A stretch of DNA of 31,944 nucleotides from an uncultured virus (IMG/VR IMGVR_UViG_3300030376_003962) (Duplodnaviria > Heunggongvirae > Uroviricota > Caudoviricetes): the IMG/VR virus record IMGVR_UViG_3300030376_003962; one strand, 5' to 3'. Below the pieces are notes generated by a model that saw only the letters and a program-made list of their open reading frames with translations, was not told the origin of the DNA and made no database searches. The position numbers were made by a program, and so were the translations under genes. Position 1 is the first letter of the stretch; each line of letters starts with the position of its first letter. This document shows, piece by piece, positions 1,616-28,200 of this stretch.

Positions 1616-1637
1616 CACAATAAAAAAGGTGAATAAA

Positions 1638-2120
1638 ATGGCAAAAGTAAAGTTAGTTAGACACAGACCAACTGGCCCTCTTCTATTGAGAAGGGGCGGT
1701 GGCACATACGCATTAACAGCGCAAGAGGAAACTGTTGTTCCACTAGGAATCGCAGTTACTATGTTAGGGGATAAAGGTCTCCTAATTGAATTAGACATAT
1801 CAGATGCAGCAGACGTTCTAAAATTGAACGACTACCTACTCAACATACTCAAGAGAGAGTTCAACGTTGAGGGAGATGCAAAGGCAGTCAAGGCTGCTTT
1901 GTTTCCTTCAGCAAAGAAGTCATTCATTCCTAACATAATCAAAGATACTCCTGTAGAGGAAGAACCAGTGATAGAGGAAGCACCTGAAGAGGTAGCAGTG
2001 GAAACTATTGACTACTCAAAATACACAGTGAAGAAACTCAAGGAGATGCTTGAGGAAAAGGGACTATCAACTGACGGAAAGAAAGCAGACTTGGTAGAGA
2101 GGATGTCGGGGGCTGAATAA
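1638..2120 (+). CDS. SAP (HeH) domain protein, 160 aa
   Basis: Start moved to ATG 1638 (SD AGGTGA at 1628). The C-terminal 'YSKYTVKKLKEMLEEKGLSTDGKKADLVERM' matches the SAP consensus and follows an acidic E/P linker. Confidence 0.8.
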   Translation: MAKVKLVRHRPTGPLLLRRGGGTYALTAQEETVVPLGIAVTMLGDKGLLIELDISDAADVLKLNDYLLNILKREFNVEGDAKAVKAALFPSAKKSFIPNIIKDTPVEEEPVIEEAPEEVAVETIDYSKYTVKKLKEMLEEKGLSTDGKKADLVERMSGAE

Positions 2121-2416
2121 TGTCATCCCCAACATGCAACTCCACAGGCGTACTTTCTACTAGCACAGTAGCAATAAAGCACCATGCTAAGATAATGAGC
2201 GTTCATGTCACTTCAACGGCAAACGCTCTGATGACTGTCAAGATATGGGACAGCGACAATTCAACCACATCAGGCAAGAAAGAGGTTGCCCGAATAGTTC
2301 TACACGCCGGAGGAACCGCTCAGACCATCGAGCAAGACCTACACGGTGTTCTTGTAGCGAATGGAATATACGTTCAGATTACAGGAACTGGAACCTGTTC
2401 GGTCAACTTTGCTTGA
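2120..2416 (+). CDS. Small beta-rich protein, probably virion-associated (98 aa)
   Basis: TAATG stop/start coupling to the previous gene. Alternating beta pattern with C-terminal 'GVLVANGIYVQITG', a pattern seen in small phage structural proteins. Confidence 0.6.
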   Translation: MSSPTCNSTGVLSTSTVAIKHHAKIMSVHVTSTANALMTVKIWDSDNSTTSGKKEVARIVLHAGGTAQTIEQDLHGVLVANGIYVQITGTGTCSVNFA

Positions 2417-2426
2417 GGTGATTCAT

Positions 2427-2852
2427 ATGCCAAGCATAGATACAGATACAAAACTCATAATGACCATCTTGTTCGTTGGAGCAGTAAGTGGTGTCAACGT
2501 TTACTTCTACGCTTCAGTAGCAGACATGCTATTATTCGGCACGTACATTCATGCCGTTCTATTTGGTGTTTTGACTGTCGGTGGAATAATGATAATGAAA
2601 GCATTATTCGACTTGATGTTGAATGACTACATCGAGGACTTCCTACTACAGCGTCAAATAAACAACTATTGGGACAGAAAGGCAAGAGAGGAAGACAACA
2701 GGAAGAGGGTCAGGGAGTCACTAAGAAACTTCCAGCAGCAGTTTGGTATAACCAACGCACCTTATGGTGACAGTGTTATGCCTAACTTGCCTATACAGAA
2801 CAAAGAACCCACTACTGTTAGTCCTACGTTCTTAACTGGATTCCAAGAGTGA
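2427..2852 (+). CDS. Membrane protein with two TM helices and a charged coiled C-terminal region (141 aa)
   Basis: SD GAGGTGAT at 2415 then ATG 2427. Hydrophobic segments LIMTILFVGAVSGVNVYFYASV and LLFGTYIHAVLFGVLTVGGIMIMKALF, followed by 'WDRKAREEDNRKRVRESLRNFQQ'. Confidence 0.75.
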   Translation: MPSIDTDTKLIMTILFVGAVSGVNVYFYASVADMLLFGTYIHAVLFGVLTVGGIMIMKALFDLMLNDYIEDFLLQRQINNYWDRKAREEDNRKRVRESLRNFQQQFGITNAPYGDSVMPNLPIQNKEPTTVSPTFLTGFQE

Positions 2853-3079: not shown

Positions 3080-3133
3080 CTTCTCAACCATTTTAATGCT
3101 CTTCTACATCCGACTCACTGACGAGGTGATAGT

Positions 3134-3805
3134 GTGTCGGTGATGGCGGGTTTTGCAATACTCATTGTAGAAGCCATGAACAAACTGTATAATCGTCTTC
3201 ATTCTATCAATTTCGGTATCTATGGTGCAAGTAAAGCAGGTAAGACGACATTGCATCGACAGTTGATGACTAGAGGGGAGGTTCCCGATATTCAGAAAAG
3301 AACTGTTGGCAGACACAGGGCTACTCGTAAATTCGTTAAATTAGATGGAGATGCACATACCGTAAAGACTGCTGACATAGGAGGTCAGACGGTTTACTGG
3401 GAAGAATGGGTTAGAGACATGAGAGGAAGACATGTGAAGTATATCGTATTCCTCTTTGATGACAGACACTTAGACAAACACTATGACATCGAGCAACAGT
3501 TATCTTGGACTTTTCTCGTTGATACCATCTGCAATCAATATTGGACTATCGGTGGCAGGAAGAAAAAGAAGCAAGAACATGATTACCCGTTGGCTGTCGG
3601 TCTTTGGGCTAACAAGTATGACTTATGGAAAGACAAGTATCCACACGATGGTAAAATTGAGAATCACCCGATATTTGAGTCATTCAAGCCCGGTCTTCAG
3701 AAACTGAATGAAACTGGAATACCTTGTCACAAATACATTGTCAGTGCCAAGTCAGATTCTGAGATGGTGTATCGGGGAATCTTAACAATGATAAAAGACT
3801 ATTAG
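3134..3805 (+). CDS. Small GTPase of the Ras-like superfamily, Arf/Sar-like
   Basis: All five G motifs in order: G1 GASKAGKTT (3224), G2 RTVG, G3 DIGGQ (3374), G4 ANKYD (NKYD at 3611), G5 SAK (3743). It has an N-terminal hydrophobic/amphipathic helix and an SD at 3123. The start is GTG 3134 or ATG 3143. Confidence 0.9.
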   Translation: MSVMAGFAILIVEAMNKLYNRLHSINFGIYGASKAGKTTLHRQLMTRGEVPDIQKRTVGRHRATRKFVKLDGDAHTVKTADIGGQTVYWEEWVRDMRGRHVKYIVFLFDDRHLDKHYDIEQQLSWTFLVDTICNQYWTIGGRKKKKQEHDYPLAVGLWANKYDLWKDKYPHDGKIENHPIFESFKPGLQKLNETGIPCHKYIVSAKSDSEMVYRGILTMIKDY

Positions 3806-13644: not shown

Positions 13645-14700
13645 ATGGCAACAACAGCGCACATAGGAGAATCAAGAGCATTGATTTTTCCCGTAATGTG
13701 CGATGGACATCTGAAAATAGAGTATGATGACTACAACACGAATGACTCAAAGCATAAGTTGTGGGACTGTGGTGGGCCGTTCTCAATAGAGGCGATACTG
13801 ACTCCCTATGATGTAAACGGAGTGGGCCATAGAGACTCAGGCCAAGGACGGCTAGATAGCACGAAGACGCCACCAAGCCCGAACCTGTCTTTGGATGACC
13901 ATGCAGATACAACTTCCAATTATGAGAGCGTGTCCTATTTCGGTGCTGGAAGAAACACGCATAAGATGATGATATTCTGCAATGACTATCTAAAATTCTA
14001 CTTGCAGAATACAACATCATCGAACTTCAACCAACCAGCAGAATACAAGATAGTGGTAGAATTGACCGATTCTCTTAGTACGCCGATAACACATACTGTT
14101 GCAAGTGAACCAGTATTCATCTCTCAGAAGAATCTTGTAGGCTACTATGACCCTGAAGGGCTATACAATGGGATATCAACAGACAAAACAAACGTGACCA
14201 CTAGTGCAAGTGGCTCAGGAAATAACATAACAGTTGGTTCAGGTGAAGCCGATGACATAGGTGCTGGTAATCAAATATACAACAACAGTGGAGTATTGAT
14301 AGGAACCGTTGCATCTGTCTCAGGAAATACCATCACATTATCGGATACTCCGGCAACGGCAGTAACATCCACTATATACAGAGACCAGCAAAGAGAGGCA
14401 TTGTATCTAGAGCAGACCAATAAAGTAGGAGTGTCCTTCGATAGCAATACCATTACTCTGTATCTGAATAATCAACCAGTAAAGAGAGTGAAGGTTAACA
14501 TCGGTAAGTTCAGATTGGATACGAGTCCGGGTGATTGCTTCATAGGACAGGACGGAAATAACCCGAATAGAAAGGCGACACAATTCATGGGTGAACTCTA
14601 CGAGATTGCATTTCATAAGTCGTCAACTCCATGTGCTAGCATCTCCACGCTTACTCCTAGTTACAATGATATTCTCTTCTACTATTCTTTTGGTGATTGA
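13645..14700 (+). CDS. Tail protein with LamG/concanavalin-A-like domain (351 aa)
   Basis: 'FSIEAILTP', 'VGVSFDSNTITLYLNNQPV' and 'FIGQDG...QFMGELYEIAFH' follow the LamG-like pattern. Confidence 0.65.
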   Translation: MATTAHIGESRALIFPVMCDGHLKIEYDDYNTNDSKHKLWDCGGPFSIEAILTPYDVNGVGHRDSGQGRLDSTKTPPSPNLSLDDHADTTSNYESVSYFGAGRNTHKMMIFCNDYLKFYLQNTTSSNFNQPAEYKIVVELTDSLSTPITHTVASEPVFISQKNLVGYYDPEGLYNGISTDKTNVTTSASGSGNNITVGSGEADDIGAGNQIYNNSGVLIGTVASVSGNTITLSDTPATAVTSTIYRDQQREALYLEQTNKVGVSFDSNTITLYLNNQPVKRVKVNIGKFRLDTSPGDCFIGQDGNNPNRKATQFMGELYEIAFHKSSTPCASISTLTPSYNDILFYYSFGD

Positions 14701-17700
14701 TGATGGCGAAGACAAATGGGACTATCCTCTACCCTCTGAAATCAGGAGTCAATGAATCCCTTGCCGATGAAGCCTATGCAGGTATGGTTACTGAGTTTAC
14801 TACAGGAAAGGCATTCAGGGATGTATCGGTCAATCCTGTATTGAAAGCGACATATGTGGAGTCCGAGACTAGCGGAACTGGAACTGCTACATCTGATGTG
14901 GTTCCATCTGTTATATTCACCGAGATTAGAAAGGGGTCTCATGGTGGCTCTATATCAAATGACAAGGCTGACCAAATAGGAAATAGGCTTCTTCCTAAGA
15001 ATAAGACAATCGCTAACTATGCTACGACTAAGGAAACAACCCCTCCCTTCAAGATAAAGGCATTTGATACCAGTATTAGCACAGGAGAGACAAATAGAAA
15101 GTTTGTATATGCAGATACCTCATTGGGTGTTGCTGTCATTGACTATCCTGCTACTGATGTTATAGCATTGGACATAGAGAGATATGATTACTTCATTATG
15201 TTGAATCCTGAGATATACGATTCATCGACACAGACTGATACTGCAAGACCGCACTTTGCCAAGATAACTAGAATATCTACATTCGATGAGTTTGGGGATG
15301 GCTTGGAGTTCAGTCCTAAGTATCCTACTTCTATACCAAAGGGAACTAACTTTGAGGTATTCAAGGGGCCAGCAAAGACAGATACTGATGTCATGGCTGT
15401 GAGTTATGGTCTTCGTGGTGACAATCAGGCTTCAACGGACAACTATGATGTGCTAAACAGGGTCGATAGACCGACGTTCTACTTCTACAATGACAGGTTG
15501 GAGCAGGATGACCAATTGGACTACATGGAGAAATACACCGTCACTAGATTGAGATGGTATGACTATAATATTGCATTAGGTACAGGGGATAGTGGTAAAT
15601 CTGTTGCTTTCACAAGCAGTAGTGCTGCTTATTCAGCGTTTGAAGAGGGCAGTTCATCGAAGAAACTATTTGTGAATACAGGCAGTTATCCTAATTTTAT
15701 GAATATAGTATTCCAAGGCATGTCGTTGTTCAATGACTCAGATGATAGTTTTGTTGGCAATGTAAAAACAATCAACACTAGTGATAACTCTATTGAGTTG
15801 GATTTCGCTAGGCAAGCATCGACTGCATGGAGAAGCGGTACTTCTACCTTCGGTTTAACATATGGAAAAGGAATACAGAATATAGTATTCAGAACGGAAG
15901 CGAAGTTGAAAGGAACAATAACCAGTATCGGTAGGAGTAAACTAGATGCAACGCTTGTGGATAATCTAAGGACGACTGATGATTTCGATAGCAATTTCAA
16001 TCCGATTCTATGGCATAAGGCATTTCCAAACATGAAGAGACATGCTTCAGATAGCACAACGGCGACATCAGCGACTCTAGATGGCAATCGCACTGGCCCT
16101 TCAAGGTACATAACATTCGACCCAAGACCTCGTAGGAATGATGTTATTCCATTTACTACTGATTTGATTGTCAATAACCCTCAGAACAAAATGACTAAGA
16201 TATTCAAGACTAAGTTACTAAACAACTCAGGATTGATGTCACACAAAATACGAGAGGGTCAGATACTCAAAGCAATGAAGACGACTTTTAGCGATAAGAT
16301 GTCATTCAAGAAATTACCATTCAAAGCATCCAAGGTAGATGGTGCAAATGAGATTCGATTCACAGACATGCTAGATTCCCATGATTATGCTTTGTCCGGC
16401 AAACTCACATCCAATTCCATCATCAAGGTAGGCGACCACTACTACGTGGTCAATGCAGTACAGAGTAAATCTTCAGGTACGCAAGATGTCACAGTGAAAG
16501 CGAATAAGACTCTCAAGGCAACGACATTCACTGTTACTCCAACGGTTCATCACTTTCAGAATGAGAATGTCGAGATTGCTGCTTGGACAGGAGTTCTAAA
16601 CACAGAGAACTTCGATTCCGATACTCAGGTAGTCTATGCAGATGGAAACAGATTGACCGTATCAGGCACAACCATCCCTAAAGAGGAATCTAAGTTCTAT
16701 GATACTAAGGTGGTATTCTCCAACATAAGCACTCATCAGAATCATGTGGATTACATTGACAAGGACATGGAGTATGTCAAATTTCAAGACGCAAGTAGGA
16801 AGTTCTATCAAAATACGAACATACAGCGTTTCTACTATTACACAGACGCATACAATTTACAGGAAGAGGTCTTTGATGGCACAGTTGAGTTGAGCGAGAC
16901 TTCTGCTGAAAACGGACTGTCAACATTGGTGATTGAGGGAAGAGACACCAATGCTTCTTTGTTGAATACACTGATAGACAAGAATCTGTCTTTCTCTGAG
17001 GACATAGTATACAGCACATTGAATCCTATTGTACCAGCATTGAATGAGGCAACTATGGATGTAAGCAGTGTGAATGGTAAGGAAATTATTCATGCTACAA
17101 TAAGTAATTGGAATACGACTGCCAAAGCAAGAACCCTGTTGTTTACTAGGAGTACCACTGAAGCAGAAAATATGATTTTCATTGGAGAGGTAGCATCGGC
17201 ACAAACATCTTTTACAACTCTCACGCATGAGCCTTTAGTTACACTATCCACTACTGCGAATACTGATATCTACTATTATGACCCTCACACTGAAGCAACA
17301 TACCTCTCAGGTAAGAAGGCGATTGGCAGTAATCCATCTATAGCCAACTCTGTTACTGACTTCTCAAGAGTCAGCGACAAGGGCTTGGTGTTCTCTGACT
17401 CGTTCTCATTCGATAGAACCGGAACTAGAACCAAGTTGGAATCAACTTCCAATACCGCTTCATTCGCTGAAGACAGGACACTGGGGTATGACATCGCCAG
17501 CCCGATAAGCATCAACTCATTGAACACCAGCACACTGAATGCAGACTCCGCTTTTGCAGTGCAGTTGTCAAGGGAGACAGGGGTATCAACAACCAAGATT
17601 AACAAGATGACATATGCTTCTGAGATGTTTGATATTGTAGAGACTATCTCAAAGGATGATGGTGGATTCAAGATGTCAATCGCACCGATTTGTCCTTTGG

Positions 17701-20700
17701 TTATGGCTAGACTAGAGAACAACACCAGTGACACTAGAACCGGATATTCATTCTACATGGTGAACAACAATGTAAACACTGGTGGTTTCATACATAGAAT
17801 AGACCCACAAATAGGGGGAAAGGGAAACCAGCAAAACACCTTCTATACACCTAAAGAGACATACAGATATTGGGATACTCAAATACTGCAAGCAGGAACA
17901 GTCACTAAGTCCGATGCTGGAATATATGGAAGTTCAACTCAACCACAGGCAATATCTGCATATTCAATCGCTTATCCGATAAAGGCAAATGGGATTGCAC
18001 CTGATTCGCCTACTCTATCTGCTTCTACTGCTCCTGTGTTGGGAAGCAACATGAATGACTCTAATTACACACTGAAGAATACAGTTGGCAGTCCATTTCA
18101 GTCAGCAGGCACTGGATACGAGAACCTGATACCGCCGAATCATGCGATTACTTCTGTTGGTAGTCTGTTGAACTCAAGAGTGCCTGACATAGACAAATTG
18201 CTGAATTACGCGCCTAAAGCGCAGAACTATGAGATATTTGCAACGGGAGATTTGTTTCCTTATTCAAAATTAAGATACAATAACATCGGAAGTCAGACAC
18301 TTAACTTTGAAGACTTAGCATGTCTGTTAGAGAGCGATGGAAAAAACTCTGCAACATCTGTTTCTCATTCTTCTTACAGTGGAACGACAAAAATGATTGA
18401 GAAGACAGACACGAACTATGAGAGAGTATCGATAAAATCTGCTAGTACAACTACAAACAACATAAAGAGATTCGGTATTGCTAGGTTGGTAGAAGCAACT
18501 TTCGATTGGCACTTCAACCCCGTTGACCCTGATTCACTACCCTCTCCTGCTGATGCACTACTGGACATCGAGAGATATCAGATGTATAGGTTAAGAGAAG
18601 TACCTGCCGGTTTAGCAGTCGTTAGGGATGGCAGTGGCAATAACACTTTGACTTTCACAGGTGGCGGCACTCTATCGCTAGAACAGGGAGATGCTGTCTT
18701 CAGGGCAGACACAGGAGAGTTGGTTCTTATTGCCAAGGCAACTATTACTAATATGAGTAGTGGTGCTAATCAATCTAACTTGATAAATATGACAGGAGAC
18801 CCCACTGCGTTAAACACCCCTGCTTACATAATCAGACAATACTCAAAGTTGTCCTTTGAGGTATTCAAGTTTGAAGATGGAGGATTTCAATCGCCACTGA
18901 TAACCTCTGACACTCTTGCTGCATCACAGACAAAGATAGATTTCACAAGTGTCTATTTAGCGAGACCAAACTATCACTCAGACAGTGGTATATTCAAGTT
19001 CGCTAAACTCAGCAATGGAGGTGATTTTCTGCCACCTAACGTCTTCATCCCCCTAGTGTTCAAGTCATCAACACACAGCACAGACCCAAAAGTATCAGAT
19101 TTGAGTCCCTATCATCCTGAATACACATGGCACAACGACACTGGGTTAAGCACTGGGAGTCATAAATTTATCAACAGTTCGAGGGTGATTGCAGGTCTAG
19201 TACAACGAAGTCATTCAGGCGGAAATACACAACGAGCAGAGAAATATGGATTATTCACTGATTCTCATCCCTACGAGAACTGTATCGCGGTGTTTAGGAA
19301 TATAAGGCAAGTTAGCGGAGGCGGGCCAAGTGTACCGTCTGATATGTTTCAAACCAGTGCGATACTAGGAAGCAGACAACAGAAAAGCAACTATCTTGCT
19401 TATACGAGTGGCTTCAATGGGGGTACCAATAACAGTGCAAATGACCTTGACCAACATACTGTGAATACAATGATATTCCAAAATAACCCAAACACATATG
19501 CAATAGCAGGAACACATACTAGGTCAGGGCGTCTTGACGATACAGCGAACAGCGGTGAAGGGGCTTTTACGGATTTAGGCGTATCATACTTCCTAGAGTC
19601 TAATGAAGGAAACACCTTGACAACCACAGAATATGACTTGCATGATGATGCGGATTTCACCTCTAATGATGGTGGTGGACTATACAGAGCGCAGATGATG
19701 ATAAAGCCAGTATTAGACATAAATGATGGTAATATAACTCTTAGCCAAACTAATAGTGCAAGGGACACGATTACCATTGATATTAGTGATTTTGATTCAC
19801 AGCACACTTGGCTTTCGTTTGTGCCGAATCTAACAGGCTACTACCTTGTTTCTGAAAAGACGCTTGAACTGAAACATGATTTAACTCTCGGTCAAGCCGT
19901 GTTGGGTGGGACTACATTCCATAGAGGTCAAATATTCGAGTCAGGAGGCGGAGGGAACATCGGGTTCATCGCTAAGATTCTAAGTCATACTACAGACCAG
20001 TCATCTTTGGATGATGATTCTTTTACCCATGTGATAAAATTGGATAGGAGCATAGAAGACAGTGACGTATTTTTAGGAAATTCACAACGAGCAAGGATAC
20101 CACGATTCAGATTAATGAAGTTGGCAGAGACAACATTTAGAGATACGCCGAGGGAGATAATATTGAACAGATTGCATTCGACTGGTTTGGATTATAGTGA
20201 GACAACCTCTAGATACGATACGGGCAACCAGTCAGGAAACTCAACCTCACATCTAGCCGAAGGGGTATTCAGTGCTTATGTTCTCATGAATTTGGACAAA
20301 GCACCCGAAACAACAAGCATAGAGTCGATAGTACCTGAAAATCCTAGTAATTCTGTGCATAACCTACCATTCTCGAATGGTGATGTTTTCGATTGTTTCA
20401 TCACAGATGGCACTAATAGACAAAGAAAAACAATCACGTTTACAGATGTTTCACCAGCATTGCACACCGGAGTTAGGCAACGAGAGGCTAGACTAACCTT
20501 TGAAGGAACGTTAACTGGGAACGGCATAGTTTCATTCGGTGAAGTAATAGACTTGGAGTTATCTAGAAAACCGAATTTGGATAACATGACGAAGTGCCAT
20601 ATCGGAACTAGCATGATTATCGGTGAAGAGGTGGAGACGGAGATTGAGCGTATAGTCAAGGAGGCGGGTCTCGATATTGACATGGTGCAGTCTCAAGCAG

Positions 20701-21746
20701 AGTTCACTGGAAACATCGTGAGTTCAGTCTCCAATAATGTCATTACTTGCAAGGCCACAGTAGAGAATATTGTAGCAGGAGATGTCATATTCACACATGA
20801 AGGATACCCAATCGGTGTTGTTGCTTCCACTCCTAGTGGAACTACAATCACTGTTAATGATGTAGATGATGATGACCCTGATGTAGATTTATGGTTCGTT
20901 CCTCTTGTCAATGATGAGATAATTAAGAGAAATAAGAAGACTTTTGTTTCTACCGATAATTTCGTACAGTCTTCTGCTTTCGATACGTTAAACAAATTAG
21001 CAGGAAAGAAGAACTTGGATTTTCGTATTAACAATAAAAAAGTGGTATTTCGTGACTTGAATTCTTCTGCCTTATTGAGAAAACAGGGAATTTCCTATAG
21101 AGACCATAGAATCTTCTCTGTGAAGAAGAATAGTTCATTGTTTGCTAAGGCTAACAAAGTGACTGTGATTGGTGATAGAATAAGAACGAGTGTGGCGAAC
21201 GATGAGAGCGGAGTACACATTAATTTCGTGGATGCAAATATCAGGACTATCACAGATGCGAAGGTGAAGGCAAATGAGTTGTTAGAATTACATTCATCAG
21301 ATGCTAGAAAAATAGTGCTAACAGTTGAGAAAAAGGGTCTTGAGACACTTGAAGCAGGGGATATCATTTACTTGGACTTCCCTCAATACGATATTCCACC
21401 TGATGATTATGTCATATTCGAGATAGAGAACGTATTAACACCGACTCTCACTATGACGGTAGGCACGTTCGACAAGACGATAGCAGAGAGGTTGTCGGAA
21501 ATAGGAAGCCAGCAAAATTCCAGCAGTTCTACTATATTCAGTAGAAATGCACAAGAGGTTTCGATAGGCAAGGTCTTCAAGGATTCTATATCGTTAAAGA
21601 CCACATCGGTTCAGTATACAATTACGGGTACTGCTAAAAGTTCAAACATGGGCTTTGATGACCTTGTGGGTTTCACTGAGGAAGTAGGGTTTGAGAATAC
21701 AGGAAGTCAGGTATTAGGGTATTATACAAGTGAGGGTAAGTTATGA
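14700..21746 (+). CDS. Giant baseplate hub / Tal-like tail tip protein (about 2,348 aa)
   Basis: TGATG-coupled start. Hub-like segments 'VFDGTVE...LVIEGRDTNASLLN', 'AFDTLNKLA...DFRINNKKVVFR', 'ANKVTVIG', 'DANIRTITDAKVKANELL' and 'LEAGDIIYLDFP...YVIFEIEN'. Confidence 0.7.
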   Translation: MMAKTNGTILYPLKSGVNESLADEAYAGMVTEFTTGKAFRDVSVNPVLKATYVESETSGTGTATSDVVPSVIFTEIRKGSHGGSISNDKADQIGNRLLPKNKTIANYATTKETTPPFKIKAFDTSISTGETNRKFVYADTSLGVAVIDYPATDVIALDIERYDYFIMLNPEIYDSSTQTDTARPHFAKITRISTFDEFGDGLEFSPKYPTSIPKGTNFEVFKGPAKTDTDVMAVSYGLRGDNQASTDNYDVLNRVDRPTFYFYNDRLEQDDQLDYMEKYTVTRLRWYDYNIALGTGDSGKSVAFTSSSAAYSAFEEGSSSKKLFVNTGSYPNFMNIVFQGMSLFNDSDDSFVGNVKTINTSDNSIELDFARQASTAWRSGTSTFGLTYGKGIQNIVFRTEAKLKGTITSIGRSKLDATLVDNLRTTDDFDSNFNPILWHKAFPNMKRHASDSTTATSATLDGNRTGPSRYITFDPRPRRNDVIPFTTDLIVNNPQNKMTKIFKTKLLNNSGLMSHKIREGQILKAMKTTFSDKMSFKKLPFKASKVDGANEIRFTDMLDSHDYALSGKLTSNSIIKVGDHYYVVNAVQSKSSGTQDVTVKANKTLKATTFTVTPTVHHFQNENVEIAAWTGVLNTENFDSDTQVVYADGNRLTVSGTTIPKEESKFYDTKVVFSNISTHQNHVDYIDKDMEYVKFQDASRKFYQNTNIQRFYYYTDAYNLQEEVFDGTVELSETSAENGLSTLVIEGRDTNASLLNTLIDKNLSFSEDIVYSTLNPIVPALNEATMDVSSVNGKEIIHATISNWNTTAKARTLLFTRSTTEAENMIFIGEVASAQTSFTTLTHEPLVTLSTTANTDIYYYDPHTEATYLSGKKAIGSNPSIANSVTDFSRVSDKGLVFSDSFSFDRTGTRTKLESTSNTASFAEDRTLGYDIASPISINSLNTSTLNADSAFAVQLSRETGVSTTKINKMTYASEMFDIVETISKDDGGFKMSIAPICPLVMARLENNTSDTRTGYSFYMVNNNVNTGGFIHRIDPQIGGKGNQQNTFYTPKETYRYWDTQILQAGTVTKSDAGIYGSSTQPQAISAYSIAYPIKANGIAPDSPTLSASTAPVLGSNMNDSNYTLKNTVGSPFQSAGTGYENLIPPNHAITSVGSLLNSRVPDIDKLLNYAPKAQNYEIFATGDLFPYSKLRYNNIGSQTLNFEDLACLLESDGKNSATSVSHSSYSGTTKMIEKTDTNYERVSIKSASTTTNNIKRFGIARLVEATFDWHFNPVDPDSLPSPADALLDIERYQMYRLREVPAGLAVVRDGSGNNTLTFTGGGTLSLEQGDAVFRADTGELVLIAKATITNMSSGANQSNLINMTGDPTALNTPAYIIRQYSKLSFEVFKFEDGGFQSPLITSDTLAASQTKIDFTSVYLARPNYHSDSGIFKFAKLSNGGDFLPPNVFIPLVFKSSTHSTDPKVSDLSPYHPEYTWHNDTGLSTGSHKFINSSRVIAGLVQRSHSGGNTQRAEKYGLFTDSHPYENCIAVFRNIRQVSGGGPSVPSDMFQTSAILGSRQQKSNYLAYTSGFNGGTNNSANDLDQHTVNTMIFQNNPNTYAIAGTHTRSGRLDDTANSGEGAFTDLGVSYFLESNEGNTLTTTEYDLHDDADFTSNDGGGLYRAQMMIKPVLDINDGNITLSQTNSARDTITIDISDFDSQHTWLSFVPNLTGYYLVSEKTLELKHDLTLGQAVLGGTTFHRGQIFESGGGGNIGFIAKILSHTTDQSSLDDDSFTHVIKLDRSIEDSDVFLGNSQRARIPRFRLMKLAETTFRDTPREIILNRLHSTGLDYSETTSRYDTGNQSGNSTSHLAEGVFSAYVLMNLDKAPETTSIESIVPENPSNSVHNLPFSNGDVFDCFITDGTNRQRKTITFTDVSPALHTGVRQREARLTFEGTLTGNGIVSFGEVIDLELSRKPNLDNMTKCHIGTSMIIGEEVETEIERIVKEAGLDIDMVQSQAEFTGNIVSSVSNNVITCKATVENIVAGDVIFTHEGYPIGVVASTPSGTTITVNDVDDDDPDVDLWFVPLVNDEIIKRNKKTFVSTDNFVQSSAFDTLNKLAGKKNLDFRINNKKVVFRDLNSSALLRKQGISYRDHRIFSVKKNSSLFAKANKVTVIGDRIRTSVANDESGVHINFVDANIRTITDAKVKANELLELHSSDARKIVLTVEKKGLETLEAGDIIYLDFPQYDIPPDDYVIFEIENVLTPTLTMTVGTFDKTIAERLSEIGSQQNSSSSTIFSRNAQEVSIGKVFKDSISLKTTSVQYTITGTAKSSNMGFDDLVGFTEEVGFENTGSQVLGYYTSEGKL

Positions 21747-22102
21747 CAGTAGTGAATGAAGGAGCAAACAGAATAGCGACATTGATAGCAGGAGATTTCG
21801 ATATCATCGCAATAGGTGATGGTGGTGACAGTACATCAGCAAGTCAAACAGGGCTGAACAACTTCGTCTTTCAGCATCCATCCAATCAAACACCAACAGT
21901 GGTGGGTTCTACTTTAGTCTACAACGTGAGTTTCACAGGCTCGCAGATACCACCATCAGGAGTTTCAGAATTAGGTATTTTCAAAACGGGAACCACGAAC
22001 GGAAACGGCACGTTATTGAGCCGAGTCACTTTCACAAACACTGGTGTTGTAGCCAGTGGAGACACAGTTACGTTTACAGTTAGAGTAGAGGTGGGTAATT
22101 AA
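21743..22102 (+). CDS. Small baseplate / fibre-attachment protein (119 aa)
   Basis: 'IAIGDGG...SELGIF...GTLLSRVTF...GDTVTFTVRVEV' resembles the N-terminal attachment domain of P2 gpH-type fibres, here standing alone. ATGA overlap with the previous gene. Confidence 0.6.
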   Translation: MTVVNEGANRIATLIAGDFDIIAIGDGGDSTSASQTGLNNFVFQHPSNQTPTVVGSTLVYNVSFTGSQIPPSGVSELGIFKTGTTNGNGTLLSRVTFTNTGVVASGDTVTFTVRVEVGN

Positions 22103-25100
22103 TGTCAACAAATCCGGGTATCATCTCAACATTAGCAACGAATCCGTCCGGCACACAACTTACGGATAACACAGACAACATACACTCAGGAATCATCAAG
22201 GCACTACACGCTGCCACTGGCGAGAACAGAGGAATAAGCGGATTCGGTTTGACTCAAGGTACTACCAGTGGCAGGACACATTTCCAAGTTGCATCGGGTA
22301 AAGTGCTAAGAGACGGTAAGTTAGTGGATATCAGCGGCACTACCCTAACAACTACTACCGACACCATCTCTGCCAACGCCAATGACTGGTATGGTTTGAT
22401 AGTGGTTAACTCGTCAAATGCATTGGCATGGAGACACGGTACTGTTACTGGAAAGGCGACTACTGGTGCAGCCACTGTTGCAGAACTAGCAACAGGAGAC
22501 ATACCACTGATAGTGGTTAAAGTCGATAACGCAGAAGCAAACAACTACGCTACTAGGTTACATCAATTCGTTTTTTACGAGCAAGCAACTCGACAGTTCT
22601 CCGCAATCAACAGTGGTTCTGAGACAATGAGAATCAATAACGATGGAACACTGACCAAAGGCTCTGCTACTATTACACTACCATCTAGCACTGGAACATT
22701 GGCACTAACCAGCGAACTCACTAGTCTAGATGATAGTAACTTAGCAGACAATGCAGTGACTACTGCTAAGATAAACAACGGAGCAGTTTCAGAGGTGAAA
22801 TTAGCAACCAATGCTGTCACGACTACTAAGATTGCAAATAACAATGTGACAACTGATAAAATTGCAAGTGATGCAGTTACCTACGATAAGATACAAGACA
22901 TTGGCACAGCAAACCGAGTCTTAGGAAAGGCTTCCACTGGAACAGTCGAAGAGGTACAAGTCACATCAGCCATGATAGCAGATGGAACAATCGCAACAGC
23001 AGATGTGGCTAATGATGCAATCACATACGCCAAGATGCAGAATGTATCTGCTACAAACCGAATACTAGGAAGAGACTCTTCCGGTGCTGGAAACGTAGAG
23101 GAAATAACCCCTGCCAATCTAGTGACCATGCTTGGTATAGAAGCGGGTGCAGATGTAACAGATACAGACAATGTAACGACTGCTTTGGACAGTGTGAGTC
23201 TAGGGGATTTCAGCCTTGGTGATACGAATGACAATATTAGTGTGGGTAATCTGACTGTTGGTGGTAATCTAACCATTTCAGGAAGCACAACAACAGTCAA
23301 CTCAAACACTGTCAACATAGGAGATAGCATAATCACCCTAAACTCAGATGAGACAGGCACACCATCACAAGACGCTGGTATAGAAGTAGAGAGAGGAAAC
23401 CAAACCAACAAGACCTTGGTTTGGGATGAAAGTGCAGGAAGATGGACAGTTGGCTCTGAAACATTCGTTGCAGGTACATTCATTGGAAATGTGACAGGAA
23501 CTGTATCATCTGCTACTGCTCTAGCAAACGAAAGAGACTTCCAACTTTCAGGAGATGTTACATCTCCTTCAGTATCCTTTGATGGCTCAGGAAACGTCAC
23601 ATTATCTACTTCCATCGGAGCGAACACTGTCGGTGCAACTGAGATACAGGATGCGTCAGTAGGTACTACACAACTAGCAAACCTAAGTGTTACAACGGGT
23701 AAGATTGTAGATTCCAGTGTCATAACTGATAAACTAGCGAATGATGCTGTGACCTCCGCTAAGATTGATGACGATGCAGTTCTAACTGCTCATATCGCAG
23801 ATGACCAAATTACTGCTGACCATATGGCAAACAACGCAGTAGGTACGGATGTAATAGTCGATAGTGCAGTTACTAATGACAAACTAGCAGGAAGCATCGC
23901 TCAATCCAAGATAACAAGTCTAGTCTCAGACCTAGCAGGTAAGCAGGCAACCTTGACCTTCGGCTCAGGATTGTCTAACTCAGGAGCAACAATAAACGTA
24001 GATATCACTGAACTAAGCACTGAGAATGGAATACACAAGACAAATGATTTCCTGATGTATAACGACACTGGTAGTGGATTGAAGAAAATCAACCTGTCCA
24101 ATGTGTTTGCTCAACTTGCAGCATCAGACATACCTAACTTAGCAGCAAGCAAAACAACCAGTGGTACATTTGCAGACGCTCGTATTCCTAACCTCGCTGC
24201 AAGCAAGATTACCAGTGGCACATTTGCTACCGCAAGAATAGCAGATGATGCTGTTACCTTTGACAAGATACAGAACGTAGACTCAGGAGTTTTAATTGGT
24301 AGAACCAGTAGCAATACTGGCTCCGTTGAAACACTGTCAGCCTCTGTTGCTAGGAGCCTACTTCAAGTAGATGTCAGTGGAACAGACAACTCAACAAATG
24401 TCACATTAACAGGAAGCAGGAACTATCTAACTCTGAATGGACAACAAATTACAGTTGGTGAGATAGACATATCAGATGATACCAATCTAGTTGCAGGAAG
24501 TCGTATCTCATTGAGCGGTGACACACTGAACGTAGATGGAGACTTGGCTAACTATGACAACTCGAATAGTGGATTCCTCACATCGCATCCCACTATCTCC
24601 GGTGCAGCCAGCAGTGTTGATAACTCAGGAAGCAGAACCTATATTCAATCAGTAACTTTAGATTCAAATGGTCATGTAACTAATCTAACATCAGCAACAG
24701 AAACTGTCACAGATACACAATACACTGTTGGTGATGGGGGTCTGTCACAGAATAACTTCACAGATGCTTTGAAATCTAAGTTACAGGGTATTTCTGCCTC
24801 TGCTAATAATTACTCCTTACCAGTGGCAGAGTCAGATGTTCTTGGCGGCGTGAAGGTCGGTAGTAACCTGACAATAAATGGTCAAGGGGTTCTTTCTGCT
24901 GATACTCAATCCGATGTGAACTTCACATCTGCTCTAAACACTAAGTTGGCGGGAATAGAAACTGGTGCAACAGCAGGTGCTAACTTCGCAACTAACGTAA
25001 GTAACATCTCAGTCACCAATGCTCAACTTGCTGGTAGTATTGCAAACAACAAACTAACCAATTCATCAGTAACTGTTAATGGAAGCACTGTTGCTTTAGG

Positions 25101-28100
25101 TGGAAGTATTACTCTAACAACCGCAAACGTGGCAGAAGGAGCGAATCTCTACTACACGGATGAGAGAGTGGATGATAGAGTCAATGCACTCTTTACAGAT
25201 GCAGAGGGAATCACTTCAGTATATGATGACATCAACGGAACTCTAACTGTGTCTGTGGAAGATGCTACATCAAGCAACAAGGGAATAGCGTCCTTTGCAA
25301 CTGCTGACTTTGATGTGAGTAGTGGCGCGGTCACGGTGAAATCCGGTGGTATAAGCAATGCACAACTAGCAGGTTCTATTGCAAATAGCAAACTCCTAGA
25401 TATATCACAAAGCAAAGTCACTGGATTAGTGTCTGCTTTAAGCGGAAAGGTAGGTAGTCTAAGCGATTTGAATATTACCGCATCTTCGTCAGAAATCAAC
25501 ATTCTAGATGGAGTTACAGGGGTATCTGCTGCCGAAATTAATTATTTAGATGGTGTGACATCTGCAATACAAACTCAACTAAATGCGAAACAGGCGGCTG
25601 GTAACTATCTAACCACATCTGCCACCATCGCAGACCTCGCTGGAATAACTGCTCTAGACTCAGATATCACTGCTGTAAGTAGTAATCACGATACAATTCC
25701 ATCTGCGTTGGCTGTAAAGACCTATGTGGATGCCATATCCTTTGAAGCAACCGACACTCAATATGTATTCACTGTTGAGGATGTGAATTCTACTAACATT
25801 CAGGAGTTGAAGATGACTGGAACAGACGGTACTTTCAGTTCTATTTTCTTTGAGGGTAGTGGAAATATTACTGTATCTAGAATAGATAATAGAATCACAA
25901 TAGATTCATCAGCAAAACCAGCCTCAAGTCTAGCGTTCAGTGAAGGGACGTTAACTTTAACCAAGGTGGATAATACAACAATCTCTGCTACGATACCCGA
26001 TGCAACAACCTCTGCTCATGGCTTAATGACTGATGACCAGTTCGACAAACTAGCAGGGATTGAAACTAGTGCGAATAACTACTCAATATCTTCTGACTTG
26101 CTAGATGAGAACGATATGGTATCTAACTCTGCAACGAAAGTAGCAAGTCAGCAGTCGATAAAAGCGTATGTTGATGCTGAAGTGGCAGATTTAATCAATT
26201 CGGCTCCGCTCACATTAAACACACTTGGAGAGTTAGCAACTGCATTACAAGACAATGACAGCGACATCACCACTATCACTACAGCATTGGGTAACAGATT
26301 GAGAATTGATGGCAGTCAATTCCTCAATAGCACACAACAGGCACAAGGTCTGACCAACTTGGGAATAACTGCAAGCCTAGCAGAGATAAATATCCTTGAT
26401 GGCGGATTATCTGCATCCGACATTCCTACATTAAACGCATCTAAGATAACCGCAGGGACTCTTGGAACTGCAAGAATACCCACACTGAATGCTTCAAAGA
26501 TAACAGCAGGGACATTCAACGATAACAGAATAGCAGAAAGCAACGTCACGCAACATCAAGCAGCCCTATCAATCACTGAGTCTCAGATAAGCGATTTAGG
26601 TGCGTTGCCTAAATCCGGTGGAACGATGACGGGTGACATAACGTTCAACTCAGGACAGCAGTTCGATGGTAGAGACCTATCTGTTGATGGAGCGAAGTTA
26701 GATGGTATCGAAGCATTAGCAAATGTCACTGATGCAACTAATGTAGCAGCAGCCGGAGCGATAATGGATGGTGACTTCACCAGTAACGGGTTCATGAAGA
26801 GAACAGGTGCAGGAACATACGCTATCGATGCAAGTACATACTTAACCGCACATCCAACAATTAGCGGTGCTGCAAGCGATACAAGTAATACGGGAAGGAC
26901 ATACATACAGAACCTAGAGTTTGACTCAAATGGTCATGTCACAAGTGTATCAACAGCAACAGAAACGGTTGTGAATACAGACACACAACTCACTCAGGCA
27001 CAGGTTCGTGACTTTGCAGGTGGGATGTTCACAGGAAACACAGAGACATTCATCACTGCAACCTATCAGACCTCTGACGACACGATAGACTTGGTAGTAC
27101 CCGTTCTAAATGAAAATAATTTGAACTCAAACTCTGCTACACATCTCGCTACCCAACAATCCATCAAGGCGTATGTGGATACCGAAATATCGGATTTAGT
27201 CAATAACGCACCTTCAACACTAGACACTCTGAAAGAAATAGCAGATGTGCTAGGAGATGATACTCAAATAGCGGGTACGATAATCGATGCTCTTGGAAAC
27301 AGGGTGAGAACGGACACCGCTTCACAAGGTCTCAATTCGACAGCAAAGGCAAATGCTAGAGCAAACATAGGTGTAGATGTAGCGGGAACTGATAACTCAA
27401 CAGATGTGACTCTTGCATCTGTGTCAAACAACTATCTCAGTATTTCAGGACAGGCAATCACTGCTGGAACTGTGCCTCTCTCACTGGGAGGAACTGGGGC
27501 TACTTCAGCATCTGCCGCAAGAAGTGCATTAGGTGTTGATGCGGCTGGAACAGATAACTCCACTAATGTCACACTAACTGGCAGTGGAAACTATCTCAGT
27601 ATCAGTGGACAAGCAATTACAGTTGACCCAATAGATATCTCAGATGATACTAACCTAACTGCTGGAACAGGGCTGACTCTAAGTGGAGATACACTGAATG
27701 TAAATGCAGCACAATCAGGAATCACAAGTGTTGGAACACTATCTTCCCTAACTGTATCAGGAGATGTCACAGTAGACACTAACACATTCAAGATAGATAC
27801 AACGAACAATCGTGTTGGTATTGGAACATCAACACCCGGATACAAACTACAAGTAGAAGGCTCATTCGCTGCACAAACTAAGTCTTTCGTTATTCCACAT
27901 CCTACACAAGAAGGTAAGACACTACAACATGGTTCTCTTGAAGGACCGGAACATGGAGTGTATCATAGAGGCAGACTAGAAGGAAGTGTGATACAACTAC
28001 CTGAGTATTGGACAGAGTTGGTTGATGAGAATACAATTAGTGTTCAATTGACTGCTAATGGCGACTTTCAAATGCTCTATGTAGAAAAGATAGAAGACAA

Positions 28101-28200
28101 CCAAGTGTTCGTGGCTAATGCAGCAGACGAGGGCATTGACTGTTTCTATCTGATTCATGGTGAGAGAAAGGATGTTGGAAAGATGGAGGTTGAATACTGA
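22102..28200 (+). CDS. Long mosaic tail fibre protein 1 (2,032 aa)
   Basis: T/S/G/A/N-rich with 10-residue 'AVTTAKIA' repeats, several duplicated modules, 'RVGIGTSTP..KLQV', and a C-terminal 'KSFVIPHP...LEGPEHGVYHRG' domain. Confidence 0.85.
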   Translation: MSTNPGIISTLATNPSGTQLTDNTDNIHSGIIKALHAATGENRGISGFGLTQGTTSGRTHFQVASGKVLRDGKLVDISGTTLTTTTDTISANANDWYGLIVVNSSNALAWRHGTVTGKATTGAATVAELATGDIPLIVVKVDNAEANNYATRLHQFVFYEQATRQFSAINSGSETMRINNDGTLTKGSATITLPSSTGTLALTSELTSLDDSNLADNAVTTAKINNGAVSEVKLATNAVTTTKIANNNVTTDKIASDAVTYDKIQDIGTANRVLGKASTGTVEEVQVTSAMIADGTIATADVANDAITYAKMQNVSATNRILGRDSSGAGNVEEITPANLVTMLGIEAGADVTDTDNVTTALDSVSLGDFSLGDTNDNISVGNLTVGGNLTISGSTTTVNSNTVNIGDSIITLNSDETGTPSQDAGIEVERGNQTNKTLVWDESAGRWTVGSETFVAGTFIGNVTGTVSSATALANERDFQLSGDVTSPSVSFDGSGNVTLSTSIGANTVGATEIQDASVGTTQLANLSVTTGKIVDSSVITDKLANDAVTSAKIDDDAVLTAHIADDQITADHMANNAVGTDVIVDSAVTNDKLAGSIAQSKITSLVSDLAGKQATLTFGSGLSNSGATINVDITELSTENGIHKTNDFLMYNDTGSGLKKINLSNVFAQLAASDIPNLAASKTTSGTFADARIPNLAASKITSGTFATARIADDAVTFDKIQNVDSGVLIGRTSSNTGSVETLSASVARSLLQVDVSGTDNSTNVTLTGSRNYLTLNGQQITVGEIDISDDTNLVAGSRISLSGDTLNVDGDLANYDNSNSGFLTSHPTISGAASSVDNSGSRTYIQSVTLDSNGHVTNLTSATETVTDTQYTVGDGGLSQNNFTDALKSKLQGISASANNYSLPVAESDVLGGVKVGSNLTINGQGVLSADTQSDVNFTSALNTKLAGIETGATAGANFATNVSNISVTNAQLAGSIANNKLTNSSVTVNGSTVALGGSITLTTANVAEGANLYYTDERVDDRVNALFTDAEGITSVYDDINGTLTVSVEDATSSNKGIASFATADFDVSSGAVTVKSGGISNAQLAGSIANSKLLDISQSKVTGLVSALSGKVGSLSDLNITASSSEINILDGVTGVSAAEINYLDGVTSAIQTQLNAKQAAGNYLTTSATIADLAGITALDSDITAVSSNHDTIPSALAVKTYVDAISFEATDTQYVFTVEDVNSTNIQELKMTGTDGTFSSIFFEGSGNITVSRIDNRITIDSSAKPASSLAFSEGTLTLTKVDNTTISATIPDATTSAHGLMTDDQFDKLAGIETSANNYSISSDLLDENDMVSNSATKVASQQSIKAYVDAEVADLINSAPLTLNTLGELATALQDNDSDITTITTALGNRLRIDGSQFLNSTQQAQGLTNLGITASLAEINILDGGLSASDIPTLNASKITAGTLGTARIPTLNASKITAGTFNDNRIAESNVTQHQAALSITESQISDLGALPKSGGTMTGDITFNSGQQFDGRDLSVDGAKLDGIEALANVTDATNVAAAGAIMDGDFTSNGFMKRTGAGTYAIDASTYLTAHPTISGAASDTSNTGRTYIQNLEFDSNGHVTSVSTATETVVNTDTQLTQAQVRDFAGGMFTGNTETFITATYQTSDDTIDLVVPVLNENNLNSNSATHLATQQSIKAYVDTEISDLVNNAPSTLDTLKEIADVLGDDTQIAGTIIDALGNRVRTDTASQGLNSTAKANARANIGVDVAGTDNSTDVTLASVSNNYLSISGQAITAGTVPLSLGGTGATSASAARSALGVDAAGTDNSTNVTLTGSGNYLSISGQAITVDPIDISDDTNLTAGTGLTLSGDTLNVNAAQSGITSVGTLSSLTVSGDVTVDTNTFKIDTTNNRVGIGTSTPGYKLQVEGSFAAQTKSFVIPHPTQEGKTLQHGSLEGPEHGVYHRGRLEGSVIQLPEYWTELVDENTISVQLTANGDFQMLYVEKIEDNQVFVANAADEGIDCFYLIHGERKDVGKMEVEY
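22741..23913 (+). repeat. Two arrays of 10-aa repeats (consensus about [D/N]xAVTxxKIA) in fibre 1
   Basis: LADNAVTTAK-INNGAVSEVK-LATNAVTTTK-IANNNVTTDK-IASDAVTYDK (about 22741-22893) and about 9 further units at about 23620-23913. Degenerate at DNA level. Confidence 0.8.

Follow-up and report, generated by a model that had tools for sequence, protein, structure and literature searches.

The tailed-virus DNA held in IMG/VR as IMGVR_UViG_3300030376_003962 (uncultured; Caudoviricetes) represents a stretch of 31,944 nucleotides, referred to here as the window, and one of its genes encodes a small GTPase of the Ras superfamily. This gene is a fixed component of a group of viruses which, judged from their gene content, are magrovirus-type tailed viruses of Poseidoniales archaea. 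The predicted protein shares its build with the Arf/Sar proteins, including an N-terminal helix ahead of the GTPase fold. On our reading of the sequences, it is part of a distinct line that branches deep in the Ras superfamily, one that is not nested within Arf or the Asgard ArfR proteins, and whose nearest cellular kin would be an Asgard-specific GTPase family. We propose, with a confidence that falls a little short of even, that late in the infection the GTPase serves as a nucleotide-gated organiser of membranes within a conserved gene cassette, putting an Arf/Sar-like build to use in a lineage of its own. A first-pass annotation, made from the letters of the window, had already proposed a virus-encoded small GTPase in a tailed virus of prokaryotes; the motifs and the surrounding viral gene block bear this out, with an archaeon as the host.

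The GTPase gene and the viruses that carry it

The gene is a single open frame (Table 1). Its GTG start at 3134 is preceded by GAGGTGA at 3123-3129, four bases upstream, and the aligned relatives begin at the same point with the N-terminus M-S-V-M. Every motif string quoted in the first-pass annotation was recovered in the translation of this one open frame of 223 residues: DIGGQ at residues 81-85, YWEEW at 88-92, YIVFLFD at 103-109, WANKYD at 158-163, and the N-terminal MAGFAILIVEAMNKLYNRL at 4-22. The motifs stand in the order of a small GTPase of the Ras superfamily (TRAFAC class), that is G1 GxxxxGK[ST], G3 DxxG, G4 NKxD and a G5 of the SA type, and T57 in switch I is the candidate G2 threonine, presumably the one that binds Mg. 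The gene is confirmed as a gene, and its product is predicted from these motifs to be a genuine guanine-nucleotide-binding switch.

The AlphaFold (AF2) model of the protein is confident (pLDDT 88, pTM 0.84) and represents a small-GTPase fold, with a six-stranded sheet and five helices as in the solved small GTPases, to which Foldseek matched it at E values of about 1e-10. A structure search independent of Foldseek was topped by Arf6, SRbeta and Sar1, and in the VIA re-ranking of structures ranks 1-29 were all Arf-family chains. An N-terminal extension of 22-38 residues is present in 24/24 aligned members of the family, with an 11-mer hydrophobic moment of 0.36-0.98; its second half is amphipathic and basic, and the helix precedes strand 1 as in the Arf family. 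No 19-residue transmembrane (TM) segment was detected in the window GTPase, and the N-terminal helix is too short to span a membrane. Relative to Arf, the model has a longer G4-G5 region and an extra basic hairpin at residues 136-145, formed by strands 136-139 and 142-145 with a basic loop. In all 24 members, 4-10 Lys or Arg residues fall within the 18 residues preceding strand 5.

The conservation of the GTPase gene is confirmed to lie far beyond chance. A search of a protein collection returned 347 relatives at E<=1e-3; among the 120 relatives listed, identity is 60-99%, most are unnamed, and four carry the name 'GTPase SAR1 family protein' in one source. A library of 50% representatives gave 56 matches, including full-length proteins at 28-38% identity. 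Within IMG/VR, 139 stretches belong to the clade of the window and 280 to a second, divergent viral subgroup (subgroup 2), which is 28-38% identical. Two alignments and their profiles are used below, A1 with 24 members and A2 for subgroup 2. For the motif counts 160 loci were taken, which yielded GTPase open reading frames (ORFs) in 155 and 122 unique sequences. All 122 keep GxxxxGKTT, the Asp and Gly of G3, a Trp 11 residues after that Asp (D+11), NKxD and the RT of switch I. The position of the catalytic Gln after the two glycines is variable (Q in 65, E in 47, D in 8 and H in 2 of the 122), with Q85 in the window protein. Against the 14 closest relatives of equal length, the nonsynonymous divergence (dN) is 0.022-0.065 and the synonymous sites are near saturation (pS 0.61-0.75); dN/dS is 0.011-0.033 in 12 of these 14 pairs, those with a computable dS.

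The window represents a structural block encoded on one strand, with genes for an SU10-type capsid protein and a protein with a SAP domain, then the GTPase cassette, followed by genes for the tail tube, a chaperone and the tape measure and by very large fibre-like ORFs; it contains no tRNAs. The GTPase gene is also carried by four complete or near-complete relatives of 98-102 kb, one of them with terminal repeats. In the complete 98-kb relative (G004) the GTPase is 96% identical to that of the window. The replication-type genes of G004 include a family-B polymerase split in two ORFs, an RFC-like ATPase and an ERCC4-HhH nuclease, and it additionally encodes a class II ribonucleotide reductase, terminase, portal, prohead protease and capsid protein. 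Among named records its polymerase is nearest to those of haloarchaeal tailed viruses, at ~24% identity, and a split PolB is given as the hallmark of group B magroviruses in the part of PMC5434244 available to us. We assign the window to a magrovirus-type tailed virus of Poseidoniales archaea, of which it makes up the structural block. The assignment follows from an HK97-type structural block combined with an archaeal-type replication block, from the nearest named polymerases, from published description and from the Poseidoniales contig described below, and not from direct comparison with named magrovirus records.

Among these viruses the GTPase is a fixed gene. Selection by the capsid gene gave 80 loci (72-92% capsid similarity), of which 49 extend at least 3.2 kb downstream, and 49/49 of the latter carry a full GTPase gene 1.4-2.2 kb after the capsid gene. 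The GTPase is not a host gene, because the single real match of the family profile in 301 host-order genomes sits on a viral-looking contig. Two of the 301 genomes were matched; the second match is marginal and lies within an ORF of 551 residues. The real one, a subgroup-2 copy, is on a 106-kb contig (C2 of G007) from a single-cell assembly of Ca. Poseidoniales, where a portal gene stands 13 kb from the GTPase. The 40 kb of C2 sampled hold a tail-tube gene, a lectin-type ORF of 2205 residues, and 19/23 ORFs with no Pfam match. The examined parts of the contig look viral, and both polymerase matches of G007 fall on contigs other than C2.

When one genome per prokaryote species was searched, relatives of A2 were found at five loci only, the C2 contig and four loci on short contigs of metagenome-assembled genomes (MAGs), two alphaproteobacterial and one Asgard. 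One MAG holds three cassette copies on three contigs, from two subgroups, and the real family-profile matches among 401 Pseudomonadota genomes come from one MAG only, with three copies on three contigs. We read the MAG copies as mis-binned viral DNA. The MAG contigs with the cassette are C57, C77 and C111 of G308, C72 and C109 of G309, and an 8-kb contig of G006 (L088).

Other genes of these viruses can be recorded beside the GTPase. Between the capsid gene and the cassette, a protein of 163 residues (1629-2120, plus strand) has a C-terminal SAP domain (Pfam E 3.9e-10) and recurs in 67/80 related loci; the SAP domain is a DNA-binding motif mostly known from eukaryotes. The giant ORF at 14697-21746 (plus strand, 2349 residues) has no Pfam or PHROG match, and the one at 22102-28200 (plus strand, 2032 residues) has tail-fibre PHROG matches and a DUF5907 repeat. 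In G004, the portal gene is directly followed by one for a lipid phosphatase of the PAP2 family (L084:13582-14382, plus strand), another possible link to host membrane lipids; G004 also encodes a TFIIB zinc ribbon protein (L083:7263-8180, minus strand) and a ThiF-family protein (L083:6436-7041, minus strand).

The gene cassette and its proposed role

In the clade of the window, the gene order runs from the capsid gene, through intervening genes, to a two-TM protein, a one-TM protein of 73 residues, the GTPase, a Cys/His protein and a Met/Gln/Gly/Asn-rich protein (Table 1). Presence was counted over 80 related loci, where the shortfalls include contig ends, and the GTPase is present in 80/80. 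The two-TM protein upstream has no Pfam or PHROG match.

Table 1. Coordinates of the GTPase gene, its motifs and the neighbouring cassette genes in the window
Feature	Position	Strand	Basis
Small GTPase gene, 223 residues	3134..3805	+	Single open frame, GTG start, motifs, model, relatives
N-terminal helix, residues 2-22	3137..3199	+	Apolar stretch, then basic amphipathic stretch
G1/P-loop GASKAGKTT, residues 31-39	3224..3250	+	GxxxxGKTT in 122/122 unique sequences; G31, G36, K37, T38, T39 invariant
Switch I RTVG, residues 56-59	3299..3310	+	RT dipeptide in switch I of 122/122 unique sequences
G3 DIGGQ and switch II to the invariant Trp, residues 81-92	3374..3409	+	D81, G84, W92 invariant; Trp at D+11 in 122/122
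Basic loop GGRKKKKQ, residues 140-147	3551..3574	+	Extra beta-hairpin before strand 5
G4 NKYD, residues 160-163	3611..3622	+	NKxD in 122/122; N160, K161, D163 invariant
G5 SAK, residues 204-206	3743..3751	+	S204, A205 at least 90% conserved (24-member alignment A1); SAK in 53/53 unique window-clade sequences
Upstream membrane protein, 141 residues from likely ATG at 2427	2361..2852	+	Two hydrophobic 19-mers (predicted TM); 77/80 loci
Upstream small membrane protein, 73 residues	2858..3079	+	One hydrophobic 19-mer (predicted TM); directly before the GTPase, 80/80 loci
Downstream Cys/His protein, 228 residues	3870..4556	+	Invariant C83, C86, C118, H121 (alignment A3); 80/80 loci
Downstream Met/Gln/Gly/Asn-rich protein, 229 residues	4553..5242	+	M 9.6%, Q 9.2%, G 8.7%, N 8.7%; 75/80 loci

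The six loci of subgroup 2 that were inspected have the same architecture at another position of the genome, upstream of the gene for a Zn-finger protein and of large ORFs with a packaging-like appearance. Their 5' part consists of a membrane protein of 149-221 residues, a protein of 75-95 residues with a C-terminal hydrophobic segment, and the GTPase. The 3' part consists, often after a protein of 60-67 residues, of a protein of 307-343 residues, a Gln/Asn/Gly/Met-rich protein of 202-223 residues and a small two-TM protein. Among 28 cross-subgroup hhalign comparisons, the two best join the positional counterparts of both downstream genes, the Cys/His protein (Prob 80.9%, E 1.3e-5) and the Met/Gln/Gly/Asn-rich protein (Prob 48.9%, E 1.7e-4). 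Because of these cross-subgroup profile results, the unit conserved by descent is taken to be the GTPase with its two downstream genes, and the membrane proteins are taken to be conserved in kind and position only.

The small insert of subgroup 2 (60-67 residues; L157:8665-8865, L090:6770-6967, L088:3708-3911) has an ORF of 54-80 residues at its place in 44/75 loci. It contains a conserved motif which, by eye only, we presume to resemble AbrB/SpoVT-type DNA binders.

The membrane organiser that we propose would operate in a few steps. The N-terminal helix, apolar at first and then basic and amphipathic, could hold the GTPase on the cytoplasmic membrane of the host together with the lysine-rich surface hairpin. 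The GTP state would seat the protein on the membrane, and the membrane-bound GTPase and its cassette partners would then control a membrane event, which may be egress, in its timing or in its execution, or a remodelling of the membrane. What the analysis shows is the gene with its motifs, predicted fold, conservation, viral setting and neighbourhood; that the protein binds and hydrolyses GTP, attaches to the membrane and works with its neighbours is inferred, and its role in egress is drawn from context only. Egress is proposed because the available part of PMC10791045 describes the egress machinery of archaeal tailed viruses as 'completely uncharacterized', and because, according to the portion of PMC10927574 at hand, vesicle formation in Euryarchaeota is driven by a small GTPase that has an amphipathic helix at its N-terminus. 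A conserved, virus-specific GTP switch with a predicted membrane anchor, locked to small membrane proteins, would represent a concrete candidate for the missing egress step.

Several points weigh against this proposal. Helix 2-22 is modelled at lower confidence (pLDDT 59-69), and hydrolysis may be slow, partner-dependent or absent, because the catalytic-Gln position is Q in just 65 of 122 sequences. The Cys/His protein gave no usable predicted fold (pLDDT 57, pTM 0.25). The upstream membrane proteins have no detectable homology across the subgroups (hhalign Prob <1%), and they are linked to the GTPase by position and character alone. No feature ties the cassette specifically to egress. In the clade of the window, the cassette sits inside the virion gene block, between the capsid and the neck and tail genes, which suits a part in morphogenesis or in the virion just as well.

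This location makes morphogenesis a serious rival role. The GTPase would then be no membrane protein but a chaperone or checkpoint of assembly that depends on GTP and serves head completion, neck attachment or DNA packaging. The short distance to the capsid gene and the place before the neck and tail genes in the window clade argue for it, as does the place just upstream of the Zn-finger protein and packaging-like ORFs in subgroup 2. We nevertheless judge it unlikely, as a soluble assembly factor would have little evident need of the basic loop or of a conserved N-terminal helix that is apolar and then basic, small membrane proteins flank the GTPase in both subgroups, and no PHROG family matches the window GTPase, the head and tail assembly families included.

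Placement among small GTPases

A DxGGQ motif with a Trp 11 residues on is a signature typical of Arf, Sar and G-alpha proteins. The Arf/Sar-type signatures named in the first-pass annotation hold up for the most part: the N-terminal helix along with the basic loop in 24/24 members, DxGGQ with Trp at D+11, the Arf-family structure ranks and the best profile match all agree with them. Searched against the PDB, A1 found as its first match the Asgard ArfR protein GerdArfR1-GDP (8OUN; E 1.7e-9, 40.7 bits), in an alignment that spans the N-terminal helix. The score against 8OUM, the same ArfR as an N-terminally truncated Q69L form, is 29.5 bits, and that against Rab33B is 29.2 bits; much of the ArfR-specific signal comes from the helix, because ~11 of the 40.7 bits vanish with the truncation. 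With the independent A2 profile, 5/5 PDB matches at E<=0.01 are Arf family.

Membership of the Arf family itself, which the same annotation had implied, finds no such agreement. In Pfam, the window protein scores 16.0 bits with PF00025 (Arf), below the cut-off of 22.3, and higher with Roc (PF08477; 21.4 bits against a cut-off of 27) and MMR_HSR1 (18.9 bits); it is also below the cut-off of SRbeta (PF09439). The profile scan suggested in the annotation therefore leaves Arf, Roc and SRPRB all short of their cut-offs, and the protein is a single domain of 223 residues with neither COR nor another partner domain. Over the 24 members, matches at E<=0.1 number 21 for MMR_HSR1, 18 for Roc, 16 for SRPRB, 14 for Ras and 11 for Arf. 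NCBIfam gives the generic small_GTP domain alone, below cut-off, in 20/24 members, and a tblastn search of the GTPase against 50,697 named phage records gave no match. Arf is the best match, above the Pfam cut-off, for the less derived members P0174 (57.2 bits) and P0167 (27.2 bits), and likewise for an Asgard relative, L216. The viral profile showed no ArfR preference in hhalign, with a score of 83.1 against ArfR and 86.1 against Ras-like proteins, whereas ArfR against Ras-like scores 203.

P0174 is a singleton of 203 residues on a 1578-bp contig, compact, with a canonical-looking switch I (PTVG), DDVGGE, a basic loop, and Arf as the clear best Pfam match. It may represent an intermediate that links the viral family to ordinary small GTPases, and a search with it led to no cellular family.

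Two trees were computed, with a reference panel of 28 small GTPases, all taken from a single Asgard genome; Pfam places Arf first for 8 of them (strongly for 6, weakly for 2) and Ras for 19, and the last is a DRG-type outgroup. Both have ArfR and Ras-like (RasL) proteins from one genome, one outgroup and long branches, and are without eukaryotic, MglA, Rag and ArvA sequences. In tree 1 (maximum likelihood, 52 rows, LG+C20 PMSF), the viral sequences form a single clade (99/93), and a group of ArfR and RasL excludes it (96/87). Forcing the virus and ArfR together costs 8.97 log-likelihood units, at p 0.062 in the approximately unbiased (AU) test, with this one-genome panel and one outgroup. In tree 2 (44 rows), ArfR and RasL stand apart from the rest at 99/92, the viral and L216-like families come together at 95/70, and the viral family, P0174 included, has 91/74. 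A grouping with generic bacterial Roc- or MglA-type proteins, which would speak against the first-pass annotation, did not emerge, as the real matches in the 401 Pseudomonadota genomes are those of one MAG; the panel holds no MglA.

The nearest cellular kin came from Asgard archaea. When the viral hidden Markov model (HMM) was scored on 60 cellular GTPases (32 from the host phylum and 28 Asgard), L216 reached 55.1 bits, the next protein 26.1 and the ArfR proteins 21-23, and L216 was again on top with the subgroup-2 HMM. L216 is chromosomal, because it is surrounded by genes for hydrogenase, pyruvate:ferredoxin oxidoreductase, Sir2 and lysyl-tRNA synthetase. Its family occurs in 39/251 Asgard genomes searched, with 1-2 copies each; it and the viral family are equally far from ArfR and RasL. 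In hhalign, three viral profiles scored 116.8, 98.4 and 83.8 with the L216-like family, 83, 54 and 53 with ArfR, and 86, 78 and 45 with RasL. The L216-like and viral families have in common two Trp residues, at D+8 and D+11, a strand of the IIFMID type that follows switch II, a basic insert that precedes strand 5, and an acidic residue where the Gln would stand. The L216-like family differs in that most members are without the long N-terminal helix, in its housekeeping gene setting and in being Asgard, not of the virus's host order; identity over the hhalign match is ~21%. It may correspond to ArfL, Rup3 or an unannotated group of bioRxiv 10.1101/2024.02.28.582541, a match that is unconfirmed.

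Members of the L216-like family (L258:9891-10541, G006:C76; loci L259-L288) have 208-244 residues, D.PGD at G3 and Trp at D+11. A neighbour of L216, a CxxCxxCC protein of 305 residues, was tried as a homologue of the viral partner and ruled out (Prob at most 1.2%). PF00025 matches were found in 89/301 Thermoplasmatota genomes (loci L228-L257), as a recurrent fusion class of ~380-430 residues and short Ras-like proteins; the Poseidoniales genomes among the no-match entries listed are without such matches. The short small GTPases of Thermoplasmatota were set aside, as they are Ras-like and reach at most 16 bits on the viral HMM.

The viral protein could instead be a true Arf-family member, an ArfR or Arf derivative captured by a virus, diverged fast and misplaced by sequence methods, with the interswitch toggle of Arf. 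The available part of bioRxiv 10.1101/2024.02.28.582541 treats the N-terminal helix as defining, through its nucleotide-dependent release by a two-residue interswitch shift, and the viral family has such a helix. The 29 leading structure ranks, 8OUN as the best PDB profile match, the five Arf-family matches of A2, and Arf as the best Pfam match above cut-off for P0174, P0167 and L216 also argue for this account, and the AU test gives no formal rejection of a clade of virus and ArfR. However, we hold it to be quite unlikely. The window protein itself stays under the PF00025 cut-off, with Roc and MMR_HSR1 higher; the ArfR match of the A1 profile falls to about the Rab33B level once the helix is gone; hhalign scores ArfR no better than RasL; both trees have ArfR and RasL exclude the viral family; and the closest group among cellular proteins is another Asgard family. 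The bearing on the origin of Arf proteins that the first-pass annotation saw in this gene is weak, because membership in the Arf family is unsupported by Pfam, hhalign and the trees, which place the family outside ArfR and RasL.

A nucleotide-binding pseudo-GTPase or scaffold that binds GTP without cycling, as a static membrane adaptor, would agree with the variable catalytic-Gln position and with the Asp that the nearest Asgard family has there (D.PGD), and is very unlikely, given that very strong purifying selection has kept G1, the G3 Asp and Gly, the RT of switch I, NKxD and the Trp of switch II invariant, as expected of a working switch. Some working GTPases without this Gln rely on a partner or on another residue.

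The proposal of a membrane organiser can be extended to a self-contained, GTP-gated membrane machine, in which the anchor-helix GTPase, its co-inherited Cys/His and Gln/Asn-rich partners and the small membrane proteins would open or reshape the host membrane, and in which the viral and L216-like families would form an unnamed deep branch of the Ras superfamily that uses the Arf design independently. This extension is a speculation to which we assign a low probability. If true, it would represent the first known egress or membrane-remodelling system of tailed archaeal viruses. Apart from this extension, the viral family shows that the Arf-type design, in which a small GTPase bears a putative membrane helix at its N-terminus, occurs outside Asgard archaea and eukaryotes, in a lineage that is not ArfR-derived by the trees, which affects the weight that such Arf-type features can be given in arguments on eukaryogenesis.

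Comparison with known systems

The gene is without an earlier description in the literature searched, and what was already known is the generic database name 'GTPase SAR1 family protein' on some entries. No literature pairing magroviruses with a GTPase was found, and the main texts or supplements examined of PMC5434244, PMC10160649 and PMC11706807 contain no GTPase term. Literature on archaeal viruses and small GTPases describes no such viral gene in the parts available, and within the accessible portions of literature joining Caudoviricetes, small GTPases and Arf, a mobile region of Asgard archaea (PMC11529989) stands alone.

ArvA/OapA of Haloferax volcanii is a close parallel by published description. 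As far as the available part of PMC10927574 goes, this small GTPase of Euryarchaeota has an amphipathic helix at its N-terminus, is annotated as PF01926, Arf-like by HHpred with Arf as the best remote match, and ambiguous in family, acts on the cytoplasmic membrane and is needed for the formation of vesicles; the viral family has a similar setting and helix, and is equally ambiguous in Pfam (MMR_HSR1 in 21/24 and Arf in 11/24 at E<=0.1). The viral GTPase might therefore be a counterpart of ArvA, the virus's own vesicle-forming switch for membrane budding, decoy vesicles or export. We regard this as decidedly improbable: the likeness is one of published description, the family profile has no cellular relative in 299/301 host-order genomes, and the short Arf-profile matches of the host phylum are the Ras-like ones set aside above. 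ArvA also differs in being cellular, with a function shown by knockout in the same portion of PMC10927574.

The nucleotide-gated membrane organiser that we favour can be set beside three further systems. With the Arf family (Arf1/Arf6/Arl1/Arl2/Arl3/Arl6/Arl8, Sar1, SRbeta and the ArfR GerdArfR1 8OUN/8OUM), the viral family shares the N-terminal helix before strand 1 and DxGGQ with Trp at D+11; unlike the Arf family, it falls below the Pfam Arf cut-off, is not nested with ArfR, varies at the Gln and has an extra basic hairpin. The Rab of mimivirus (PDB 5XC5) is a recognisable Rab in a virus of eukaryotes, whereas the family described here belongs to an archaeal host in which no homologue was detected and fits no named family. 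Finally, a mobile-like region of Atabeyarchaeia (Asgard), as given in the available part of PMC11529989, holds two Arf-clustering GTPases and resembles the viral case in tying Arf-type GTPases to an archaeal mobile element. It differs in that it is integrated in an Asgard chromosome and not shown to be viral, and its GTPases cluster with Arf in the tree of its authors.

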